From Candidatus Hermodarchaeota archaeon (GTDB lineage: Archaea > Asgardarchaeota > Heimdallarchaeia > Hodarchaeales > Hodarchaeaceae), in NCBI GenBank assembly GCA_048886185.1, contig JBHLKY010000022.1:20774-52773 (forward strand): 32,000 nt of DNA. Reading direction: 5' to 3'. The notes beneath the pieces are model-generated. The model did not search any database, had not been told where the DNA came from, and saw only the letters and a list, made by a program, of their open reading frames with translations. Shown in pieces: positions 3,948-15,699 of this stretch. Position numbers and translations under genes: made by a program. The stretch's first letter is position 1. Each line of letters begins with the position of its first letter.

Positions 3948-4781
3948 TTAATAATATCCTAGTGCTCCTTTTTGTCGTGTACGATATTCAAAGTAATTGA
4001 AGACTAGAATTCCTAGAATCAACCACACTACGTTTAAAAACATTATATATATGAGAATTTCAAACCAATATGCACTAAATCCTTGGAGTACTCCCTCACG
4101 GAATCCCTCAACACCCCAAGTTATTGGTGAGATGAAAGATAATGGTTTTAGAAGAGCAGGTAATACTGCTAATGGAAAAAAAGCCGGAGCTAATAAATTC
4201 ATGAATCCATCCATGAAAAGGACAAACTTCCAAGCTTGTTTCATTGCAAGAACCAATCCAGATATGATTAGGGAAAATCCTAACAATGAAATCGTAGCAA
4301 AAAACAAAATGAAAATCATGGGTAGAATATTGAGAACATTTATTTGTAATCCATATAGAAAATATACACCACCAATCTGCAAAAAAAATGCCAATACTGA
4401 CATGGACAGACCAAAAAGTGTATTACCAAAAATTATTGAAAATCGGGAGGCAGGGGTCATATAAATGCTAACTAATGTTCCAGTCCATTCTTCCCGTCGA
4501 ATACCCATTGCTCCCATCCAATAAATGCGTGTTAGAATAGCCATTGAAGCTGAACCGAAAGTTAAGAATAAGATAACATCACTTGTTGTTGCATACTTGG
4601 CTAGTATCTCACTTTCACGACCACCTACTAAGGCTTGTCCATAGATGATAACAGGAAGCAAGAAAATCAATGGTTCAGATACAAAGTAGAGAAAAGTTAA
4701 TGGATATGCTAATCTGATTCTCCAATATTTAATCATAAGTTGCCAAGAGCAATTAAGCTCAAACCAAATGCGAGATATCAT
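3948..4781 (-). CDS. ABC-2 type exporter permease subunit
   Basis: About 6 hydrophobic helices, REEWTGTLVSIYMTP motif, P.TW/FP..LP motifs; co-oriented with a second permease and an ATPase. Confidence 0.85.
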   Translation of the reverse strand: MISRIWFELNCSWQLMIKYWRIRLAYPLTFLYFVSEPLIFLLPVIIYGQALVGGRESEILAKYATTSDVILFLTFGSASMAILTRIYWMGAMGIRREEWTGTLVSIYMTPASRFSIIFGNTLFGLSMSVLAFFLQIGGVYFLYGLQINVLNILPMIFILFFATISLLGFSLIISGLVLAMKQAWKFVLFMDGFMNLLAPAFFPLAVLPALLKPLSFISPITWGVEGFREGVLQGFSAYWFEILIYIMFLNVVWLILGILVFNYFEYRTRQKGALGYY

Positions 4782-4783
4782 TG

Positions 4784-5611
4784 CTAATAGGCTCCTAATG
4801 ATCCTTTTTCACGTGAGAATTCCTCCATCTTTGTAAAGAGAAGGACTCCAATCATCCACAACACAATATCTAGAATTACTAGGCTAATTATAAAGATCAT
4901 TGGTTCTAATGCGGGGTACATTATTGTTTCTGGCATTGTTAATTTCCTAATAACAGAAAGACCTAATGTAAAGGGAATTGTAAGAGAAATTACTCGAATC
5001 CAGCCTGGCAGAGCTTGCAAACTGTACCGAACTGGTGTGATGAGATGCATCCCAGTTTCAATCATTTCAGTTAGTGTTCCTGGTTCTTTGAAGACTATAA
5101 TTATACCTGCCATCAAAACACCAAATCCATACAAACCTACTATTGTGAGGATTAAGACACCAACAGATAAAATTAGTCCTTGCCAAAGTAGATGTATTTG
5201 TAGAAAGACACTTATAATGGTAAATTGAATCAAAATATTGATTGATGCCCATATTGTTTCCGAAATACTTGTACCAATTAGTATATCCACACGACTCGTG
5301 GGCGTTGTCCATAGTACTTCCAGTGTTCCAGATTCTTGTTCCCAACGAATGGCATTTCCTGCTCCCCATAAAGCTGTAGACACAAACATGAAGAGAATTG
5401 TCCCTACAACAATAAAGCTCAGAAAATCTTCACTTCCAGTAAGTTCTGCGAAGTTTTCACTAGTAGTTCCCCCAACAAATGCTATTCCTTGAAGTATGAG
5501 TGGTGTTACCCACATTACTGGCATAACTGCCCAAAACAGCAAGTCGAACTTGTATCGAGACATATGAATTATATTTTTATAGATAATGGCTTGAATTGTC
5601 GCAAGTTTCAT
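4784..5611 (-). CDS. ABC-2 type exporter permease subunit
   Basis: WEQESGTLEVLWTTP motif, about 6 TM segments. Start moved to ATG 5611 (MKLATIQ), which follows a GGAGG RBS and avoids overlap with the ATPase gene. Confidence 0.85.
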   Translation of the reverse strand: MKLATIQAIIYKNIIHMSRYKFDLLFWAVMPVMWVTPLILQGIAFVGGTTSENFAELTGSEDFLSFIVVGTILFMFVSTALWGAGNAIRWEQESGTLEVLWTTPTSRVDILIGTSISETIWASINILIQFTIISVFLQIHLLWQGLILSVGVLILTIVGLYGFGVLMAGIIIVFKEPGTLTEMIETGMHLITPVRYSLQALPGWIRVISLTIPFTLGLSVIRKLTMPETIMYPALEPMIFIISLVILDIVLWMIGVLLFTKMEEFSREKGSLGAY

Positions 5612-5612
5612 T

Positions 5613-6617
5613 TCAAGTGTCCTCCTTGATATTTGATAATCCCCGTCCAGTGAGTTTAATGAAAGCATCTTCTAATGTAGGAGTTTCAACATCAATACTT
5701 TGTATCGAGACATTCTCTTCTTTCAATTTTTCTAAAACTGAGAGCATAATTTGTGAGCTGTCTTGTGTATGAATGTGAGTAAGATTGTTTTGTGTATAAA
5801 CTTCAAGGATCCCAGGAATATCATGAAAGATTCTATTTGGAAATGAATCAGTTGTTTTAATTTTAATAACTTCGTGTTCTTTGATCTGTAATTTAAGTTG
5901 TTCAGGAGTGGCGGTATCTATGATTACTCCGTTATCAATTAGAGCTACTCGATCAGATAACTGATCAGCTTCAGCCATATAATGAGTGGTTAACAGAATA
6001 GTTTTTCCCTCTTCCTTCTGTAGAATATTTTTTATGAATTGTCTCAAATCACGAGCAAAGGAAGGATCAAGGCCTAATGTTGGTTCATCGAAGAGTAATA
6101 CTGGTGCATTTGATATTAAAGCTCTAGCAAAATTAATTTTCATTTTCATTCCAGTACTATATTTTTCAACGCGTTCATGAGCTTTATTTAGAAGTTGCAT
6201 TTGTTTAAGTAAATGCCTTGCACGATCATGGGCTTCAGTTTTACTAAGGCCATACATACGTCCAAAAAATATCAGGTTTTCCAATCCAGTCATTTTCCAA
6301 TAGGTACTCCGTTCACCACCACCAATAGTAGCCCCGAAACTAGCACGTGCTTTAGAACTTTCTTTTACAACATCGAAACCATTGATTTTTGCTATACCAT
6401 GATCCGGAATAACAATTGTAGTTAGTATTTTCACTAAAGTAGTCTTACCAGCTCCATTAGGACCAAGTAAACCAAAAATTTCTCCTTTACTGACACAGAG
6501 ATCTACTTTATCGAGAGCTTGGACTATCTCTTTTTTCCGATTACGCTTAAAACGCGAGCCTCTTGTTTTCTCAAATCTTTTGCTTATTTTAGACACATAA
6601 ATTGGAAAATTCTGCAT
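5613..6617 (-). CDS. ABC exporter ATP-binding subunit (DrrA/CcmA-like, with C-terminal extension)
   Basis: Walker A GPNGAGKT, signature YSTGM, Walker B LLFDEP, H-loop TTHYM, C-terminal PTLEDAFIKLTG. Confidence 0.92.
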   Translation of the reverse strand: MQNFPIYVSKISKRFEKTRGSRFKRNRKKEIVQALDKVDLCVSKGEIFGLLGPNGAGKTTLVKILTTIVIPDHGIAKINGFDVVKESSKARASFGATIGGGERSTYWKMTGLENLIFFGRMYGLSKTEAHDRARHLLKQMQLLNKAHERVEKYSTGMKMKINFARALISNAPVLLFDEPTLGLDPSFARDLRQFIKNILQKEEGKTILLTTHYMAEADQLSDRVALIDNGVIIDTATPEQLKLQIKEHEVIKIKTTDSFPNRIFHDIPGILEVYTQNNLTHIHTQDSSQIMLSVLEKLKEENVSIQSIDVETPTLEDAFIKLTGRGLSNIKEDT

Positions 6618-7074
6618 CTAAGAACATCCTTCACAGCATAAATTGTTTTTTTCAGTGTAATCGTGTGTTAGAAAGTCTTAAATTAGACTGGTGATCGAAT
6701 GAAAGAATTTTGACGAACTTCAACGTTATTAAGAATGTTTAAATATCTGAAAATATTATAATTAATCTTTTTACCAACGTAAAGCAAAGATAACTAGGAA
6801 ATGGCGGTGAAGATTTTTTATCAACACGGTCAAATTTCAATCCTTATTTTAACTTATTATCTTCTATATAATTTCGTCTTTAAAGAATATTCCTGAAAAA
6901 ATGACTAAAAATTATAGAAAACTGAATTATAGTAATTTAGATATTCTTATTAGACCTGTTGATTGCTTATTTTTTTATTTGTTCTAAAAATCAATGTAGT
7001 AAAAGTTTTTCATTACGTATTGAGTAGATAATAAATGAATTATACAGTGAAATCTACTAATTCATGTGTTTAAA

Positions 7075-10000
7075 ATGAGTTATTTCAACATAGCTTTCCG
7101 TAATGTAAAGCGAAATAGATGGAGAAGCTTCTTATTAATATTAGGTATCACCATGTCTGTTGCATTGGAAACGGGAATAGCTATTACAGTTGATTCATTA
7201 TATGAAAATTTCATTACGGAGCAGAGATGGAATAATTATACTGATCTTAGTATTCATTCTACGATTAATGGGACGACTCCTGAAGAAATGAAAGATGTAG
7301 CAAATACAGTTCAGTCGATATCAGGAGTTCGTAGGGCTAGTACAATCATAACTCATATTTATTCTAATGAAACACTTGAATCTATAGAATACAACTTCAG
7401 TATTGACTATAACGTCATTATATATGGTTGTCAAACAAATCATCCTGATTTTCAGAATATCAATGTAATTAATGGAAATCGAAGTTTAAATACCAACGAG
7501 GTAATGATTTCGAATAGCCTCGCTAAAATGTTTGGAACTGTTCCTGGCCAGAACATTAATCTATCACGATTCATTCCTGATATGTCTGGATCAGTGAATA
7601 TTAAGGGAATTATAAAAGACGAAAATAATTTTGGAAACTTATTTGGATATCTTCTTATCCTTGTTAATTTAGATTTTTTATATGAAAAATTGTTAGAAGC
7701 CAAATGGGATTTTGAAATTGAATGTGTGGTTGAGATTGCTAATTTAATGGAAATTGATGAAGTCACTACAAGAGTAATGAATGAGCTTGGAGAAAATTTT
7801 CTGGTTATGCGGGGAAAGATCATTTCAGAATTAGCGAAAATGGGAATCACCTCCTATCAATCAGCAATGAACATTATATTATTAGCTTCTTTTGTTGTAG
7901 CTGTCCTATTTTTAACAAATATATTAGCAATAAATGTTAATGAGCGAAAAAAGGAATTTGGTATTTTAAGATCGATTGGTACATCTAATACACAAATCAT
8001 TATAACACTTGGCATTGAGATCTTAATTTATTGTATTTTAGGGAGTCTTTTAGGAAGTATCCTTGGGTTATTTTTCTCAGTGTTTTACTTAACGATATTT
8101 AATCAAACTGAAGAAATAATAACTATAACTGAACTTGTGATAAGCCCTATCTCCTTAGGTTCCGCTTTTTTTTCAGGTATTTTTATATCTCTTGTCGCTG
8201 GGAGCTACCCCGTTTTACTAGCTATATTCTATCCACCTGTTCAAAACATCTATTATCAACAACGAACTATGGAACGTAAATGGAGAATAACATGGAAATA
8301 TTCATTTTTAGCTGGCTCTATCTTAAGTCTAATTGGGATTCTTGGTACATACTTAATTGGACCGTCACAATTCTTATCTTTTGAAATAATTTCTTTCCAC
8401 TTTATTGCTGTTGTTTTAACACTGATTGGGACACTCTTAATACTAACTGGATTACTAAGTTTTTTACCAAAGGTTAGCAGGTATTTATTCTGGCACTCGG
8501 CTGTTTCCAAAATAATTTCATCACGAAATGTTAAACGTGAGGCGTCTAAGTCATCAATCACCATTCTTACCAGTGCTGTTGCATTGTCTTTCATCTTGAT
8601 AATTGGAGTTGTATCAAGTGCATTAGTTGAAGCTGTTCCAGATTTTTATAATAACCAATTTGGGGGAATTGATATTATTGCAGAATGTTATGATGGACAA
8701 GAGCTCCCAATTTCATTGGTAGATAAATTAAAGAAAAATGGAGACATACATCAAGTCAGTTTTATACAAGAGCACTCAACCAGTGTAGCTATGAGTCAAG
8801 ACAGGATTAATATTTTTGGAATTAGTCCAAAAGAATTTGAAATATTTATCGATCCAATTCTAGCTCAAACCAAACAAAATCTAATAACAATGTTAAATAC
8901 TACTGAACATGGAGTTATTATTAGCGATCTTCTATTAAAAAAACTAAATGTAGATCTAGAAGAAGAAGTTCAAATCATTATAAGAGAAAATATCACAGTA
9001 ACCCTTGTTATTAATGGAATTGTAAGAGGAAATCCATTTATTCACAATGGTATGTATTTATATTTATCTAATACTCTATTTAATCAGCTTTTCCCTTCTG
9101 AAAGTGAACCTGTGGCAAAATGGTTCGTTATTGCTACAGAAGACGAAGTTAATGAAAAGAACTTAACAAGAAGCCTTATGAGATCATATGAATTCAATCG
9201 TGTATCTTCGATAGATTATTTTTCAGGAGTGATCGAGAAAACAATTCAAAGACAAGCTGCGTTGTTCCAAATATTATTCTTAGAATCATTCTTCCTAGTT
9301 GGATTAGCTCAATTTGTGTGTATCTTAATTTCAACATTGAGGATGGAAAGAGAATTAGGAATCATGCGCGCAATGGGACTGTCAAAAAACGGAGTTATTT
9401 CAATCTTTTTGGCAGAAAGTACATTATTAGGAGTTACTGCCGTAATTATTGGTATTGTAGAAGGTGTTATTGGATCATATCTCATGCAATGGTACATTTC
9501 TACAAGTATTCCGATCAACGTGAGTTTTGATCTAAGATTGATCTTACTCTGGGTAGGAGTTACATTTTTAATAACTATTATTAGCACTTTGATTCCAAGC
9601 TATCGCTCTTCAAATAAAAGTGTTGTCGCAGCGATCAGCGGAAGAGCTATCCCTGAAATAAAAGTTCCAGATATTGAAGTATTTGAAGAGATTGTGTTAA
9701 ATGTTGAAAATCTGAGAGGCTACTATCGGGGATCATTTGGAATAGTGCATGGAGTTGATGATGTCTCCTTTACCATGAAAAAAGGTGAAATTGTAGGTCT
9801 TGCTGGAGAATCTGGTTGTGGAAAGTCCACATTAGCAGAACTCATTACAGGAACACCCAGGCCTCTCCTACACTATGAGGAGGGGATAGTACGCGTTGAT
9901 AAATACAATATATACAATATCAGAAATGAGGAGCTACGAACCAAGGTCAAATGCAAATTGATGGCATATGTACCTCAAGCTTCAATGGATTCCTTGAATC

Positions 10001-10680
10001 CTGTGAAAAGGATAATTGATTTTATCATGGATGTAGTGAAAGAACGTACTGGTCAAACAAGATCTAAAGGAGAAATCTATAAACTTGCTGCAGACCATTT
10101 TGAAAGGGTAGGTTTGGATAAATCAGTTCTGAAACACTATCCCCATGAACTTAGTGGGGGCATGAAACAACGTGTCATAATTGCAATCTCTACTTTATGG
10201 AATCCTCATCTCTTGATAATAGATGAACCAACAAGTGCATTAGATGTTACATCTCAAAAACAAATGATAAAAATGCTTTCTGAGTTGAAAAAAGAGCAGA
10301 TTATTCAATCAATCTTGTTTGTGTCACATGATATTGCTACTCTCAGACAATTATGTACTAGATCCATAATCATGTATTGTGGTGAAATTGTAGAGATTGG
10401 TACAATGGACGATATTATTAACAATCCTCTTCATCCTTATACTACTTTACTCATTTCATCTATTGTAAGATTCAATCCAGATGGTACTCGCTCTTTTGCG
10501 TTGAAGAGTATTCCAGGAAATCAACCTGACTTAAGAGCTCCTCCCCCTGGGTGTCGCTTTCACCCTCGCTGTCCTCAAGTGATGACTCATTGTAAATCTT
10601 ATGAACCCCCTACAGTAGAGATTTCTGTCGAAGGGAGAATGGTTAAGTGTTGGTTATTTCATGAGTATGATAAGCATTAA
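7075..10680 (+). CDS. Fusion protein: tandem FtsX/MacB-type (type VII ABC) permease plus C-terminal OppD/DppD-type ATPase with 4-Cys tail
   Basis: Two FtsX motifs (ERKKEFGILRSIG near 7942; ERELGIMRAMG near 9347), about 10 TM helices, two large extracytoplasmic loops. In frame from about 9690: GESGCGKS, QASMDSLNP, YPHELSGGMKQRV, IIDEPTSALDV, SHD, HPYT, PPGCRFHPRC..C..C. Start is ATG 7075 (track uses GTG 7066). Confidence 0.88.
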   Translation: MSYFNIAFRNVKRNRWRSFLLILGITMSVALETGIAITVDSLYENFITEQRWNNYTDLSIHSTINGTTPEEMKDVANTVQSISGVRRASTIITHIYSNETLESIEYNFSIDYNVIIYGCQTNHPDFQNINVINGNRSLNTNEVMISNSLAKMFGTVPGQNINLSRFIPDMSGSVNIKGIIKDENNFGNLFGYLLILVNLDFLYEKLLEAKWDFEIECVVEIANLMEIDEVTTRVMNELGENFLVMRGKIISELAKMGITSYQSAMNIILLASFVVAVLFLTNILAINVNERKKEFGILRSIGTSNTQIIITLGIEILIYCILGSLLGSILGLFFSVFYLTIFNQTEEIITITELVISPISLGSAFFSGIFISLVAGSYPVLLAIFYPPVQNIYYQQRTMERKWRITWKYSFLAGSILSLIGILGTYLIGPSQFLSFEIISFHFIAVVLTLIGTLLILTGLLSFLPKVSRYLFWHSAVSKIISSRNVKREASKSSITILTSAVALSFILIIGVVSSALVEAVPDFYNNQFGGIDIIAECYDGQELPISLVDKLKKNGDIHQVSFIQEHSTSVAMSQDRINIFGISPKEFEIFIDPILAQTKQNLITMLNTTEHGVIISDLLLKKLNVDLEEEVQIIIRENITVTLVINGIVRGNPFIHNGMYLYLSNTLFNQLFPSESEPVAKWFVIATEDEVNEKNLTRSLMRSYEFNRVSSIDYFSGVIEKTIQRQAALFQILFLESFFLVGLAQFVCILISTLRMERELGIMRAMGLSKNGVISIFLAESTLLGVTAVIIGIVEGVIGSYLMQWYISTSIPINVSFDLRLILLWVGVTFLITIISTLIPSYRSSNKSVVAAISGRAIPEIKVPDIEVFEEIVLNVENLRGYYRGSFGIVHGVDDVSFTMKKGEIVGLAGESGCGKSTLAELITGTPRPLLHYEEGIVRVDKYNIYNIRNEELRTKVKCKLMAYVPQASMDSLNPVKRIIDFIMDVVKERTGQTRSKGEIYKLAADHFERVGLDKSVLKHYPHELSGGMKQRVIIAISTLWNPHLLIIDEPTSALDVTSQKQMIKMLSELKKEQIIQSILFVSHDIATLRQLCTRSIIMYCGEIVEIGTMDDIINNPLHPYTTLLISSIVRFNPDGTRSFALKSIPGNQPDLRAPPPGCRFHPRCPQVMTHCKSYEPPTVEISVEGRMVKCWLFHEYDKH

Positions 10681-10743
10681 AAAAAAATAATAATATTATT
10701 ACAAACCAAATATCTTCCACATTTTAACAACGAGCATTAGGTT

Positions 10744-11553
10744 GTGCAATACTTGATAAATGATAATTTTGTTCTTGTTATGGACATGGACGGAACTTTG
10801 ATTAAAACAGGTGAACAACTTAATGATGAACTTGCAATTCTACTAAAACCCTATATTGATGAATTTCGTTTGATAATAGCTACAGCACGGCATCCCCTTG
10901 GAGTAAAATTTGTTTTACAGGAATTTTTTAATTTTGTGCCTACTATCTCTTTGAATGGAGCTGCTCTTCACCTAACGAGTTGGACAAAATTCGATAAAGT
11001 TATCTTTTTTCCAAGCAAAGTTGTTAGTGAGATCAAAGAAGAACTATCATCGTTTAATGTTGTTACAACATACTATGGAACAGATTTCTGGGCAGTATCA
11101 GATTATTCTCCAGGAGTTGATAGAGAGGCGAGAGTAACTGGTATGACGCCTGTTTTATGGGAAGAAAAGTTCCTAGATGGCTGTATAAAGATACTAGTAA
11201 TAGATGAAAGAAATAAGATAAAAAAGGTGCAAGAATATGTCTCCAGAAATCTCAGCAATCATGTCCAAGTTAATACTTCCCATGAAACTTATTTGGAAAT
11301 CTCCCCGTATTCTGTAAAGAAATGTTTATTTCTTCCGGATCTGTTGAAAGAGTTATTCTATAGAAACTATCGAACCATCAAAGTAATATTTATTGGTGAT
11401 TCTGAAAATGACATCCACTGTGCAGAAGTTGCCAATGAGGCTTGGACTTTTTCAACATCCCCAAAAAGATTAAAAGATCTCTCTTCAGGAATTCTAGACC
11501 ATGCTAATGGCAAAGGAGTAAAAAAATTTCTCATTCGGTTAAATAAACAATAA
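10744..11553 (+). CDS. HAD superfamily (Cof-like, subfamily IIB) phosphatase
   Basis: Motif I DMDGTL, IATAR, ISLNGA, YLEISP...K, motif IV IGDSEND. Confidence 0.87.
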   Translation: MQYLINDNFVLVMDMDGTLIKTGEQLNDELAILLKPYIDEFRLIIATARHPLGVKFVLQEFFNFVPTISLNGAALHLTSWTKFDKVIFFPSKVVSEIKEELSSFNVVTTYYGTDFWAVSDYSPGVDREARVTGMTPVLWEEKFLDGCIKILVIDERNKIKKVQEYVSRNLSNHVQVNTSHETYLEISPYSVKKCLFLPDLLKELFYRNYRTIKVIFIGDSENDIHCAEVANEAWTFSTSPKRLKDLSSGILDHANGKGVKKFLIRLNKQ

Positions 11554-11605: not shown

Positions 11606-14600
11606 ATGAGTATTTATTATTACGATGAGAGTAATAGATTCGTTATAGAGAATTATAATCATGCTAAACCTTTTGCTAGTTTTCTACCTGGAATTGCAGG
11701 AACATTGGGCATCCCTCTGTGGGTTTTCTATGTTAACAGAGGGCAAGGAATTGCAAGTTTTGGATTTCGAGATAAGAATGGCTCAATCATGGAATTTTTT
11801 CCTGCAAATAAATCATACCAACTAGTGCCTTATATTGGATTTAGAACTTTTATAAAGAAAATTAGTAATAATAAATCTCATTTTCATGAACCTTTTTCAT
11901 TAAATCACCGAAATTTCAATAGAATTGAACGAATGATGATAAGCTCTCATGATCTAGAGATTGAAGAAATCTCACACGATCTTGGCTTGAAAACCAATAT
12001 AATTTACTTCACATTACCAAATGAAGATTTTGGTGGTTTAGTACGGAGAGTAAACATAAAAAATGTTTCTTCAAATCCCATAAAATTTGAGCTACTTGAT
12101 GGATTACCGATTGTGGTCCCTTTTGGGATCCCTCATAGGGTATTAAAGGAGATGAGTTATACAGGGATTGCTTGGATCGAAGTTTCCAATATAGACCAAA
12201 AAATCCCTTTTTATAGGGTTAGTTCAAGTATAGGAGACGAGACACAGGTTCAGAAAATAAACAAGGGACATTTTTTTCTATCATTCATTCAGAACAAAGA
12301 TGGAAATCGGCTATTAGATCCCATTGTTGACCCAGAAAACATATTTGGTAAAAATACATCACTATCTTATCCTGATATTTTCTTAAAATCATCAATAAAA
12401 GAATTACGAAAGAGAGGGCAAATAACTAGTAATAAAATCCCTTGTGGCTTTTTTTATACTGACTGGAGTCTAAATCCAAATGAATCAGTAGAAATAATTT
12501 CTATTATTGGTCAAGTTAATGATATTAACTGGCTTAACAGCCAAAAACAACGGATTATTCAGAAGAATTACATTGCTTTGAAAGAAGATGAAAATGCAGA
12601 AATCATTTCTTTAATAATGAAGAAGGTACAAACAAAGACATCCTCAAAATTATTTGATAGCTATTGCCAACAAAATTTCCTAGACAATGTTTTACGGGGA
12701 GGTTATCCATTTATTATAGATAGTATAAAAACACCTATTGTGTTTCACTTATACTTTAGAAAACACGGGGATTTAGAACGAGATTACAATTGGTACTATT
12801 TAGAAGATAATTTCTATTCACAAGGAAATGGAAATTATCGTGATGTTAATCAGAATCGAAGATGCGATGTACATATTCATCCTAATGTCCAGCATTTCAA
12901 TGTACTTGCATTCATGAACCTAATACAATTAGATGGATATAATCCATTAGTACTTGAAGGTTCAAGGTTCAAATTTGAAATCTCCAGTCAATTAGAAATC
13001 TTAAACCTTGGAAATGACCGTTCTAAAATAGAAGGTTTCTTTAAAAGACCCTTTACACCAGGAAGTTTAATCAAATTTATAAAGGATCAAAAAATCACTC
13101 TGAAGATTCCTCTTCACGATTTTCTGAAAACAGTCCTTAATCATTCAGATCAATTTTTTGAAGCTTCTCATGGAGAAGGTTATTGGATTGATCACTGGAC
13201 ATATAACTTAGACCTTATTGAAGACTATTTTTCAATTTTTCCTGATAAGAAGGATGAATTACTTTTTAAGAAGACCATTTTCACTTTTTATGACAATTCA
13301 GCAGTGGTTCGACCAAGAAAAGACAAATATGTATTAATTGACAGAAAAGTTCGACAATTAGGTTCAGTTATGATAGATAAACAAAAAGAGAAGTTAATTA
13401 ATTCCAGAGATCAATTTCAGAATTCTGTAAGAATAGAGAATGGAACTGGATCTGTTTACAAAACAACTTTGTTTTCAAAGCTATTTTGTCTCGTACTGGT
13501 TAAGTTTGCCACTTTAGATCCTTATGGAATGGGAATTGAGATGGAAGCTAATAAACCAAGCTGGTACGATGCTTTGAATGGATTACCAGGAATTTTCGGT
13601 TCCTCTATGTCTGAAACTTATGAGCTTAAAAGATTCATCATTTTTATGTTAAATTCTATTAAAAATAGTATAGAAAAATCTATCAAAATTCCAGTTGAAG
13701 CTTATGACTTTTTAGAGAAAACATTAAAACATTTAGAGGAATATTACTCTTCAAAAATGGAAAATAAGCAATTTCTTTATTGGGATGTAATCTCAACGGC
13801 GAGGGAAAACTTCAGGGAACGAATCAAATTTGGACTTATCGGGGAAGAAAAAGAGATTACAATTAAAAATGTAAAAATTAGTTTAGAAACCTTTTTACAG
13901 AAATTGGAGAAAGGGATATCTAATTCACTTGAATTGAATAATAAAAGATACCCTACTTACTTTTATTATGAAATCGAGGAATATGAACCACTTTATGATG
14001 AACAAGGAAATGTTAAAATTCATGAAAATGGTTTTCCTAACGTACAGATAAAGAAATTTAAGCCAGTGTCCCTACCATTGTTTCTAGAAGGATTTGTTAA
14101 AGGTATAAAAATCCAAACTAGTAAACAGAATGCAAGAGAAGTTTGGAGTCAAGCTAGAGACAGTAGGCTTTTTGATCAGAAGTTAAAGATGTATAAATTG
14201 AATGAATCACTTGATAAACAACCCATTGATATTGGGAGAGCCAAAGCTTTCACGGCAGGCTGGCTAGAGAATGAATCAATTTGGCTTCACATGCAGTACA
14301 AATTCTTACTTGAAGTCCTTAAACAAGGTCTATACAATGAATTTTTTTCTGATTTTAAAAATATAATAATTCCTTTCTTAAATCCAGAAGTTTATGGAAG
14401 AAATTTAACTGAAAATTCATCGTTCATCGTAAGCAGTGCCTTTATCGATGAAAATCTTCACGGAACAGGCTTCTATGCAAGATTAAGCGGAGCAACAGCA
14501 GAATTTTTACATATTTGGTTATTAATGATGGTAGGGAAGAATCCTTTTACAGTAGAAGATAACCAATTATGCTTAGAATTCAGACCAATTCTACCAAGCT

Positions 14601-14860
14601 GGTTATTCGATGAAAAAGGAATTATATCTTTTAATTTCTTAGGGAATTGTAATGTAATTTACAATAATCCGCAAAAATTAGACACATTTAATAAAAATAT
14701 ACAAATCAAGGAGATAGACCTTGAAATTGAAGGAGAAGGTACTACTAATCTCAAAGGAAGTAAAATCAGAACTCCTTTTGCATCATTGGTAAGATCAGGC
14801 AAAGTAAAATCTATTTCCATCTTTTTTGAATCCATTGAAACCTCAAAAAGTAATTTCTGA
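11606..14860 (+). CDS. Large glycoside phosphorylase-like protein; best fit is GH161 beta-1,3-glucan phosphorylase (often annotated 'cellobiose phosphorylase')
   Basis: 1084 aa; FASFLPGIAG..GIPLWVFYVNRGQ, RKHGDLERDYN, SQGNGNYRDVNQNRR, HGEGYWIDHWTYNLDL, WYDALNGLPG, GWLENESIWLHM.YK, RLSGATAEF. Family assignment is from my recall of these motifs and was not searched. Confidence 0.65.
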   Translation: MSIYYYDESNRFVIENYNHAKPFASFLPGIAGTLGIPLWVFYVNRGQGIASFGFRDKNGSIMEFFPANKSYQLVPYIGFRTFIKKISNNKSHFHEPFSLNHRNFNRIERMMISSHDLEIEEISHDLGLKTNIIYFTLPNEDFGGLVRRVNIKNVSSNPIKFELLDGLPIVVPFGIPHRVLKEMSYTGIAWIEVSNIDQKIPFYRVSSSIGDETQVQKINKGHFFLSFIQNKDGNRLLDPIVDPENIFGKNTSLSYPDIFLKSSIKELRKRGQITSNKIPCGFFYTDWSLNPNESVEIISIIGQVNDINWLNSQKQRIIQKNYIALKEDENAEIISLIMKKVQTKTSSKLFDSYCQQNFLDNVLRGGYPFIIDSIKTPIVFHLYFRKHGDLERDYNWYYLEDNFYSQGNGNYRDVNQNRRCDVHIHPNVQHFNVLAFMNLIQLDGYNPLVLEGSRFKFEISSQLEILNLGNDRSKIEGFFKRPFTPGSLIKFIKDQKITLKIPLHDFLKTVLNHSDQFFEASHGEGYWIDHWTYNLDLIEDYFSIFPDKKDELLFKKTIFTFYDNSAVVRPRKDKYVLIDRKVRQLGSVMIDKQKEKLINSRDQFQNSVRIENGTGSVYKTTLFSKLFCLVLVKFATLDPYGMGIEMEANKPSWYDALNGLPGIFGSSMSETYELKRFIIFMLNSIKNSIEKSIKIPVEAYDFLEKTLKHLEEYYSSKMENKQFLYWDVISTARENFRERIKFGLIGEEKEITIKNVKISLETFLQKLEKGISNSLELNNKRYPTYFYYEIEEYEPLYDEQGNVKIHENGFPNVQIKKFKPVSLPLFLEGFVKGIKIQTSKQNAREVWSQARDSRLFDQKLKMYKLNESLDKQPIDIGRAKAFTAGWLENESIWLHMQYKFLLEVLKQGLYNEFFSDFKNIIIPFLNPEVYGRNLTENSSFIVSSAFIDENLHGTGFYARLSGATAEFLHIWLLMMVGKNPFTVEDNQLCLEFRPILPSWLFDEKGIISFNFLGNCNVIYNNPQKLDTFNKNIQIKEIDLEIEGEGTTNLKGSKIRTPFASLVRSGKVKSISIFFESIETSKSNF

Positions 14861-14973
14861 AGGATGAAATCTAAGGGAACAATGATGAATAATAATTTTA
14901 ATCTTGCTCATTATATTAATATAGGCCAATTAAATATCAAAATAATTCAACCACATATAGGGTGAGCACTAAT

Positions 14974-15699
14974 ATGGAAACCACTAGGGCATTAATAGAC
15001 ATTGCTGAATGGAGGAGACGTCGTAAAGTAATTGAAAATAAAAGAATAGAACTTCTATTAAAGAATGAGAGTTGGATAAAACAAAGGTTGATTTCACAAC
15101 GGGGATCAGATGTTCGTCCTTCTGAAGTCTCTCAAACGATAGAATGGTTAAAGAAAGTCTCGAAATTTATACCTATTCCTTCTGATAGAGAATTAGAAGA
15201 AATTGTAAGAATTATGGTTCTCCTGAGCAATGAACGAGCAAAATTTTCTCACATTTATGATGAATCTGGTCTAAAACTAATGAAATCGGTAAGAGAGGGG
15301 ATGATACGATATTTTGTCGTACTCAGCGAACTTCGAGCTCGTAGAAAAGAGTTTATTGACTATTGGTTCACTGATGACTATTGGATAACAGAATGGAGTA
15401 AAATATTACTTGATTTAGCACCAGAGGAAAATATGACTAAATATAGTATTGCTGATGTAACAGCAAGGGACTTTTTATATATCTTAGAGCTAGAGCTAGC
15501 AACTGCTGACACTGCATCTGGATTGGAAAATCCAATGATCTGTTTACAAGCTATTGAAAATAAGGATGCTTTTCTAATTATTCCTACCGAAGCTGCCGCA
15601 AAAGAATATAAGGATCAAGTCGATCAAATCATTGATAAAAAAATAACATTCACGGAATGGACAAAAAAGACTTTAAAACATCTTGGACTACCGAAATGA
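14974..15699 (+). CDS. Hypothetical protein, charged and predicted helical, no recognised family
   Basis: Long open frame. GGTGA RBS precedes ATG 14974 (track start is GTG 14962); converges with the MBL-fold gene. Confidence 0.7.
   Translation: METTRALIDIAEWRRRRKVIENKRIELLLKNESWIKQRLISQRGSDVRPSEVSQTIEWLKKVSKFIPIPSDRELEEIVRIMVLLSNERAKFSHIYDESGLKLMKSVREGMIRYFVVLSELRARRKEFIDYWFTDDYWITEWSKILLDLAPEENMTKYSIADVTARDFLYILELELATADTASGLENPMICLQAIENKDAFLIIPTEAAAKEYKDQVDQIIDKKITFTEWTKKTLKHLGLPK

Follow-up and report, generated by a model that had tools for sequence, protein, structure and literature searches.

A YbbP-like type VII permease fused to an OppD-type ATPase in a genus of Hodarchaeales

We analysed a window of 32,000 nucleotides from Candidatus Hermodarchaeota archaeon (NCBI GenBank assembly GCA_048886185.1, contig JBHLKY010000022.1, positions 20,774 to 52,773 of the forward strand), which corresponds to G000:C22:20774-52773 in the analysed genome, G000. 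At 7066..10680 on the + strand lies a gene that encodes, in a single chain, an FtsX-type permease of the ATP-binding cassette (ABC) superfamily joined to an OppD-type ATPase. In the list of open reading frames and its translation the gene opens with GTG and yields 1204 amino acids (aa); the ATG at 7075, which gives 1201 aa, is the probable start, and from residue 4 onward the protein matches the database cluster P0002 at 100%. Throughout 7066-10680 the frame contains zero stops and zero frameshifts. Pfam recognised MacB_PCD (PF12704) at residues 21-203 (2e-12) and FtsX (PF02687) in two stretches (5.7e-29), followed in the C-terminal half by ABC_tran (PF00005) at 898-1057 (4e-26) and oligo_HPY (PF08352) at 1109-1176 (1e-20). 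Hydropathy and an AlphaFold2 model (mean predicted local distance difference test score, pLDDT, 81.7; predicted TM-score, pTM, 0.61) are concordant in giving 10 transmembrane helices (TMs), and both place large ectodomains of about 225 residues each between TM1 and TM2 (41-269) and between TM7 and TM8 (517-735). The open reading frame, Pfam, hydropathy and the model thus agree with a preliminary description of the window, which had noticed one uninterrupted frame with two FtsX motifs, about 10 TMs and two ectodomains.

The layout of the gene, read on the + strand, begins with TM1 (residues 22-40, 7129..7185), which is visible in the hydropathy profile and as a helix in the model. It leads into ectodomain 1 (41-269, 7186..7872), which is of the MacB_PCD type by Pfam, has an alpha/beta fold in the model and aligns with YbbP (9ge6_A). 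FtsX domain 1 follows (TM2-TM4, 7873..8235; PF02687 at 270-390) and includes coupling helix 1 (residues 296-305, 7951-7980), whose motif is kept in all fused and unfused relatives. The linker helices TM5-TM6 (414-464, 8305..8457), assigned by hydropathy and the model, occupy the same position as TM5-6 of YbbP (PMC12646458). Next come TM7 and ectodomain 2 (498-735, 8557..9270), recognised by hydropathy and by an alpha/beta domain modelled at 533-711, and then FtsX domain 2 (TM8-TM10, 9271..9594), which is the second FtsX stretch, was again detected as a second match in the genome search and is present in the model. Coupling helix 2 (residues 763-771, 9352-9378) is defined by the model and by conservation; the two coupling helices are the short cytoplasmic helices modelled in the TM2-3 and TM8-9 loops. 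The fusion junction (9595..9696), delimited in an alignment of 8 fused homologues, consists of a conserved FtsX C-terminal tail (845-860) and a variable linker, which together put 34 residues between permease and ATPase. The linker right before the ATPase is disordered in the model (pLDDT <50 at model residues 859-868). The ABC ATPase core (9697..10365; PF00005) carries Walker A at 9805-9831, the Q-loop at 9967-9984, the signature at 10150-10173, Walker B at 10210-10245 and the H-loop at 10321-10332, all invariant in the 8 homologues. The gene closes with an oligo_HPY C-terminal domain (10366..10677; PF08352), in which four Cys codons stand at 10552, 10570, 10591 and 10648.

The same four-domain architecture was recovered in eight sequence clusters of 60-100% identity from separate assemblies (NCBI, JGI, ENA and Logan), labelled Heimdallarchaeota, Hodarchaeales or Hodarchaeota. 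Three run-level assemblies from one sediment study each contain one contig of 11-15 kb that crosses positions 9000-10700 with zero differences; the window itself may derive from them. A run from a different, estuarine study gave an identical 157-nt contig over 9588-9744, which is the junction. No RNA run is listed among the public runs that contain the sequence. The ratio of nonsynonymous to synonymous substitution rates (dN/dS) against three homologues was 0.08-0.10 for the ATPase and 0.11-0.16 for the permease, values that are approximate because dS is saturated. The alignment of all eight fused homologues shows no variation in Walker A, the signature, Walker B (catalytic Glu included), the H-loop or the four Cys, and about 18 residues of the linker are variable among them. 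The fusion is real and under purifying selection in both halves, and it is not an assembly artefact, because eight clusters carry it and the junction recurs in an unrelated estuary run. The preliminary description had allowed for a break at the junction and for homologues that are always split: contigs span 9595-9696 without difference and with no stop, frameshift or misassembly, and the eight clusters are fused. A fused ATPase that looked truncated in one further genome of the genus (G015) proved to contain a run of N in the record. We also observed that the NCBI labels of the metagenome-assembled genomes of this genus are inconsistent; P0017 and L055 represent a “Thorarchaeota”-labelled NCBI protein identical to one from the window's GTDB genus, and others are labelled Promethearchaeota, Heimdallarchaeota or Hodarchaeales.

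To classify the ATPase half, we compared its C-terminal 330 residues with NCBIfam, in which the best models were OppD, DppD and OppF, all under their curated cut-offs (219 bits against a cut-off of 575 for the OppD subfamily, and 202 against 541 for the DppD equivalog). Foldseek returned the nucleotide-binding domain of DppD (4fwi; TM-score 0.93, 40% identity), then E. coli OppD (8z21_C; TM-score 0.87) and DppD. Judged by its sequence, the fused ATPase is a divergent member of the OppD/DppD type. Cys1163, Cys1169, Cys1176 and Cys1195 form the pattern C-x5-C-x6-C-x18-C and are aligned, column by column, with Cys of TtDppD (4fwi), E. coli OppD (8z21_C) and E. coli DppF (8z1v_D). In E. coli DppD and DppF these Cys hold a [4Fe-4S] cluster that is required for assembly of the complex (PMC12136057). 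The four Cys of the fusion lie at known [4Fe-4S] ligand positions, and cluster binding is predicted. A complete C-terminal nucleotide-binding domain of the OppD/DppD type with a four-Cys tail, as first described, is therefore borne out by the intact motifs, NCBIfam, Foldseek, the phylogenetic tree and the alignment with known ligands.

The origin of this ATPase can be traced on the same contig. Beyond the window's edge, some 14 kb upstream of the fusion, lies a complete operon for an Opp-family importer of the sugar type, ordered SBP_bac_5-OppB-OppC-OppD-OppF, hereafter the parent operon, set among GH3, two GH94 and GH17-like genes (GH, glycoside hydrolase family). Its solute-binding protein (SBP_bac_5) has 727 aa, OppD 329 aa (G000:C22:12233-13222) and OppF 266 aa. 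The preliminary description had found no solute-binding protein, type I permease or OppF; this holds within the window, but the contig does carry a complete importer with OppF, and the apparent absence arose because the upstream operon lies just beyond the window's edge. The free OppD is 76% identical to the fused ATPase, which shares 42% identity with the next-best match among the ATPases of the genome. Maximum-likelihood analysis groups the fused ATPases with the free OppD orthologues of three other genomes in a single clade (100/100 support) on a long stem, and within this clade fused and free copies are poorly resolved. Since fused and free OppD share one fully supported clade, the tree identifies the fused ATPase as a copy of the parent operon's OppD that arose near the base of the group. 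As a separate observation, the parent OppF (G000:C22:13234-14034, L018) contains the first half of oligo_HPY only and is without the Cys-rich tail of its OppD partner; its orthologues in three other genomes are just as short. The stops reported for the OppF match on this contig are the end of this short 266-aa protein with its truncated tail.

For the permease half, the best Foldseek match in the PDB was E. coli YbbP (9ge6_A), with 893 aligned columns and a TM-score of 0.55 by target, and the next matches were BceB, MacB and LolC/E. The systems MacB, LolCDE and FtsEX are known for mechanotransmission or membrane extraction and are not known as importers. E. coli YbbP has 10 TMs, ectodomains at TM1-2 and TM7-8, and TM5-6 as a link; its coupling helices are at TM2-3 and TM8-9, and two copies of YbbA bind one YbbP (PMC12646458). 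YbbAP extracts hydrophobic compounds from the membrane, and mechanotransmission has been described for it (PMC12646458). Both coupling helices are conserved in the fusion, and the motif E-x-G-I-L/M-R-x-x-G is kept in 50 relatives. As modelled, the permease is built like a YbbP-like type VII permease, with two FtsX domains, MacB-type ectodomains, the TM5-6 linker and the coupling helices. The cognate MacB/LolD/FtsE-type ATPase that the YbbP-like subclass usually has next door is missing there, and the fusion's own ATPase is of the OppD type.

Literature searches for an FtsX-type permease fused to an OppD-type ATPase yielded no description of this architecture. A search of the Atlas with the whole fusion gave no cluster of at least 50 members with FtsX plus oligo_HPY, only bacterial forms with an N-terminal ATPase, a negative that is no proof of the architecture's absence elsewhere. 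Long proteins with an OppD-like ATPase numbered 7924, and of the 120 that ranked best, the eight Hodarchaeales clusters alone contained FtsX. Going by the literature and the clusters searched, these results suggest that the pairing of a YbbP/MacB-type permease with an importer ATPase has not been described before. The early impression that both the type and the order of the ATPase are unusual was correct, as bacterial FtsX-ATPase fusions have an N-terminal MacB-type ATPase.

The fusion occurs in 4 of the 22 genomes of the genus (G000, G003, G010 and G015). A free OppD-OppF pair occurs likewise in four (G000, G008, G010 and G012), and the two are found together in two genomes; in G010 the fusion and the parent-type operon are 560 kb apart. 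With this distribution, the fusion is better described as a lineage-specific variant than as the undescribed transporter class that had been put forward. Each genome of the genus holds 2-6 paralogues of the permease, and relatives at 35% identity or more are confined to this genus among the 151 Asgard genomes sampled. Unfused paralogues come in two lengths, about 900 aa and 1100-1430 aa, the longer ones having about six additional helices at the C-terminus, and an ATPase is fused in none of them. Most paralogues (for example G000:C4:174847-178590, G000:C21:24311-27865 and many of L041-L072) have about 16 TMs in total, the extra helices being without a Pfam match. We considered whether the C-terminal extensions of the 1173-1427-aa paralogues might be degenerate ATPases; BLASTP against the ATPase was empty, and about six hydrophobic helices were found instead.

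We then compared the gene neighbourhoods of this family with those of other FtsX genes. In G000, a MacB-type ATPase gene lies within 43 bp of 20 of the 28 FtsX genes, and of none of the three members of the fusion's permease family. Across the genus, an oligo_HPY-type ATPase gene is found within 7 kb of 16 of 40 unfused paralogue loci and within 1.6 kb of 12, as against a chance expectation of about 2% (six Opp loci per 4.8 Mb). On the permease tree, linkage to Opp genes occurs in at least three separate clades, with differing gene orientations. In the sister clade of the fused group (SH-aLRT 82), seven of ten members are arranged OppB-OppC-OppD-OppF-158aa-permease with a divergent gene for the solute-binding protein. 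Overall, the permease family is linked to Opp operons in these genomes. The ATPases beside the sister-clade permeases are only 32-37% identical to the fused ATPase, which indicates that the fusion captured the OppD of a different Opp operon. It had been suggested that an orphan OppF might exist elsewhere in the genome. No orphan OppF was found in G000, where all 12 other oligo_HPY genes belong to six D/F pairs; an OppF is present nonetheless, beside the parent OppD.

Several details of these loci deserve mention in their own right. The 158-aa membrane gene of the sister clade has zero homologues in the G000 genome, and a 135-aa gene beside the paralogue on contig C4, considered as its counterpart, proved unrelated. 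Next to one paralogue, the Opp permease is unusually long (L021:15118-17517 on G000:C4; 799 aa, with OppC_N at 300-333), and next to another, a 749-aa OppB (L034:15437-17686) has an N-terminal extension of about 500 aa. At L001:4949-5335 (CP070760.1), a 128-aa open reading frame with oligo_HPY only stands at the usual place of OppF, upstream of a 154-aa gene and an unfused permease, and looks like a relic of a lost Opp operon.

In the window, the fusion is preceded by an ABC-2 unit on the - strand (3948..6617), assigned by Pfam, which comprises a DrrA-like ATPase (5613-6617) and two ABC2_membrane genes (4784-5668 and 3948-4781). The unit is divergent from the fusion, with a common intergenic region of 457 bp. 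At two other fusion loci, L023 (CP070695.1) and L025, the ABC-2 genes run in the same direction as the fusion immediately upstream of it (gaps of 6 and 131 bp), and the order is DrrA-like ATPase, two ABC2_membrane genes, fusion, Cof-type HAD phosphatase, a protein of about 1075 aa and a 241-aa protein. The window holds the same gene set with the ABC-2 unit inverted. Its Cof-type HAD phosphatase (10744..11553, +; Pfam and NCBIfam) and a 1084-aa protein without a Pfam hit (11606..14860, +) are at the same places as in L023 and L025. Language-model features of the 1084-aa protein (Atlas) match “cellobiose phosphorylase” clusters at 0.99, and a GH94-like glycoside phosphorylase is its probable identity. 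The neighbours of P0008, a more distant fused homologue, are GH94, ROK, GH2 and GH116 genes, without an ABC-2 unit among them. The rest of the window contains GH5 (twice), GH20, GH3, a PfkB kinase and similar enzymes.

The next gene in the window, at 14962..15699 (+), encodes a 245-aa protein of a Hodarchaeales-only family that is 47-48% identical to the product of a gene beside unfused permeases in L001, L002 and L034. Members of this family also adjoin permeases at L035, L036, L038, L040, L071 and L073, and two further copies in G000 (G000:C4:189454-190110 and G000:C10:53318-53953) are near Opp ATPase pairs. The family comprises 135 clusters, all “hypothetical” and from Hodarchaeales-labelled records only, with several copies per genome. 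The AlphaFold2 model of the 245-aa protein (pLDDT 42.8) is too poor to classify it, and an Atlas feature search with the protein gave no usable match.

Taken together, the fusion itself, the missing MacB-type partner and the linkage to Opp operons suggest that an Opp-type ATPase provides the energy coupling for this permease. We see about an even chance that the protein works as part of a YbbP-like type VII machine powered by Opp-type ATPases, of which one is fused and the other comes in trans. The fused OppD would fill one coupling-helix site, presumably that of the TM8-9 helix, which is nearest to the linker. A second ATPase in trans would be needed because there are two conserved coupling helices and one ATPase per chain, and oligomers of the fusion cannot fill all sites. 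The second helix would be occupied by such an ATPase, the likeliest being the OppF that partners the parent OppD, or else another Opp-type ATPase. ATP-driven closure of the ATPase pair would then move both ectodomains, so that work is done outside the cell by mechanotransmission and no solute passes through the protein. This external work would most likely serve the capture or processing of beta-glucan-type oligosaccharides, or the control of a surface partner.

The docking and the partner were modelled in a complex prediction with three chains, namely TM8-10 plus the ATPase, TM2-7, and OppF (266 aa). The score was 0.51, compared with 0.00 for the best control, which lends weak support to the arrangement. 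In a benchmark, 58 of 80 solved complexes and 2 of 110 mismatched pairs attained the mark; both of these mismatches, but only 7 of the 80, scored 0.60 or less. The runs had no less than 82% of contacts in common, and the pLDDT of the partner was at least 76. Complexes of OppD with OppF have already been solved, so that the pass may reflect memory of, or likeness to, those structures.

Several points weigh against this proposal. To our knowledge, no type VII system uses an Opp-type ATPase. A search for positions with a fixed difference that separates the fused ATPases from the free OppDs returned none, and the ATPase therefore bears no sign of adaptation to a new membrane partner. Neither OppF nor the free OppD orthologue was found in two fusion-bearing genomes, G003 (83% complete) and G015 (70% by markers, single contig), so that the proposed partner is not obligatory unless another Opp-type ATPase substitutes for it. 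Near 24 of the 40 unfused loci there is no Opp ATPase, and the paralogue loci are interrelated, so that the enrichment counts clades and not 40 independent events. The beta-glucan-type task is suggested by the conserved neighbours, and the external task is a guess.

The lack of fixed differences fits equally well with an arrangement in which the fused OppD is still seated on the EAA loops of OppBC, paired with OppF, and attaches the YbbP-like unit to the importer as an accessory, for example for substrate hand-over or for holding a binding protein or hydrolase. The sister-clade permeases, which share an operon with an OppBCDF set that has just two ATPase genes, point the same way, as does the full conservation in the fusion of the Fe-S domain that E. 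coli DppBCDF needs for assembly (PMC12136057). We nevertheless regard this arrangement as unlikely, because both FtsX coupling helices are conserved, which implies ATPase binding, and the parent operon retains an OppD of its own. Moreover, two genomes with the fusion, neither of them complete by markers, yielded no such operon, and in G010 it lies 560 kb from the fusion. The neighbourhood raises another option, in which the fusion is the partner of an ABC-2 system for export or extraction of a lipid, glycolipid or surface polymer and its glycan-utilisation neighbours are incidental. The co-directional ABC-2 genes directly upstream in L023 and L025 and the extraction of hydrophobic compounds from the membrane by YbbAP (PMC12646458) speak for it, as does the 457-bp divergent intergenic region that these genes share with the fusion in the window. 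However, P0008 has GH94, ROK, GH2 and GH116 genes around it and no ABC-2 neighbour, and the unfused relatives associate with Opp operons, not ABC-2 systems, so that we consider such a role quite improbable.

The preliminary description had raised the possibility of oligosaccharide uptake through an FtsX-type membrane domain, with the protein's own ectodomains replacing a binding protein as receptors. The richness of the locus in glycoside hydrolases and the importer type of the ATPase speak for this, but the YbbP/MacB fold has been described for mechanotransmission or membrane extraction, not import (PMC12646458), and the ATPase comes from a complete Opp importer with its own binding protein that lies 14 kb away. 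With a normal importer present, uptake is the least likely of the functional roles, and we think it very unlikely. The patchy distribution of the fusion, in 4 of 22 genomes of the genus, could also be read as that of a neutral or decaying fusion, or of an assembly chimera, whose ATPase has no function; eight independent clusters, the junction in an unrelated run, a dN/dS of about 0.1 and the integrity of every catalytic motif make this barely credible.

The proposal of an Opp-driven YbbP-like machine can be extended, more tentatively and at somewhat less than an even chance, to the unfused relatives. These may belong to a genus-only family of YbbP-like type VII permeases that are powered by importer-type OppD/OppF, shared with or coupled to the adjacent Opp importer. 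If this is true, the fusion in the window is a “Rosetta stone” that exposes the partnership of permease and Opp ATPase, and one ATPase pair runs both type I uptake and type VII mechanical work. ABC systems are classed by membrane-domain fold, with the general assumption that every class has an ATPase lineage of its own; the class of an ABC ATPase would then not be tied to the membrane-domain fold. A natural, selected chimera together with ATPase-less paralogues in Opp operons would show that the ATPase and membrane layers are recombinable, and the fusion would be a tractable single-chain construct for testing such recombination. It would also provide the first functional lead for the large orphan double-FtsX family and for the 245-aa family, both found in this analysis in Hodarchaeales genomes only. 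The Hodarchaeales are often discussed as close archaeal relatives of eukaryotes, and the fusion adds an unexplained component to their beta-glucan utilisation loci.

Among known systems, the permease most resembles YbbAP(-TesA) (PDB 9GE6-9GE8), in which a single-chain 10-TM permease has its ectodomains, linker and coupling helices at the same positions. YbbP itself, however, is unfused and binds two copies of the MacB/LolD-type ATPase YbbA, whereas the fusion has one OppD-type ATPase with an Fe-S-type tail at its C-terminus, and the sequence identity between the two is only about 13%. BceAB (7TCG), the second-best class of structural match, shares the 10-TM double-FtsX topology; BceB has one large ectodomain and two free BceA ATPases, unlike the Hodarchaeales fusion. 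MacB and the bacterial fused “ATP-binding protein/permease” FtsX proteins (e.g. P0034 and P0040) likewise combine an ABC ATPase and FtsX in one chain. These MacB-type fusions have an N-terminal MacB-type ATPase and one 4-TM FtsX unit, whereas in the Hodarchaeales protein the order is reversed, the ATPase is of a different class, OppD-type and C-terminal, and there are two FtsX units.

The ATPase half resembles OppD/DppD of the PepT-family importers (4fwi; OppBCDF 8z21; DppBCDF 8z1v; M. tuberculosis OppABCD 8j5q) in its core, oligo_HPY domain and four Cys, with 30-40% identity over structural alignments. Known OppD/DppD, whether free or in tandem ATPase proteins, are seated on the EAA loops of OppB/C-type permeases, whereas here such an ATPase is joined to an FtsX-type permease. 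The “multitask” importer ATPases MsmX and MsiK serve a number of type I importers, all with the same fold. They offer a precedent for an ATPase with more than one membrane unit, the situation that we propose for OppD/F, OppBC and the FtsX-type permeases; the sharing of MsmX and MsiK stays within one fold, whereas that proposed for OppD/F would cross fold classes.

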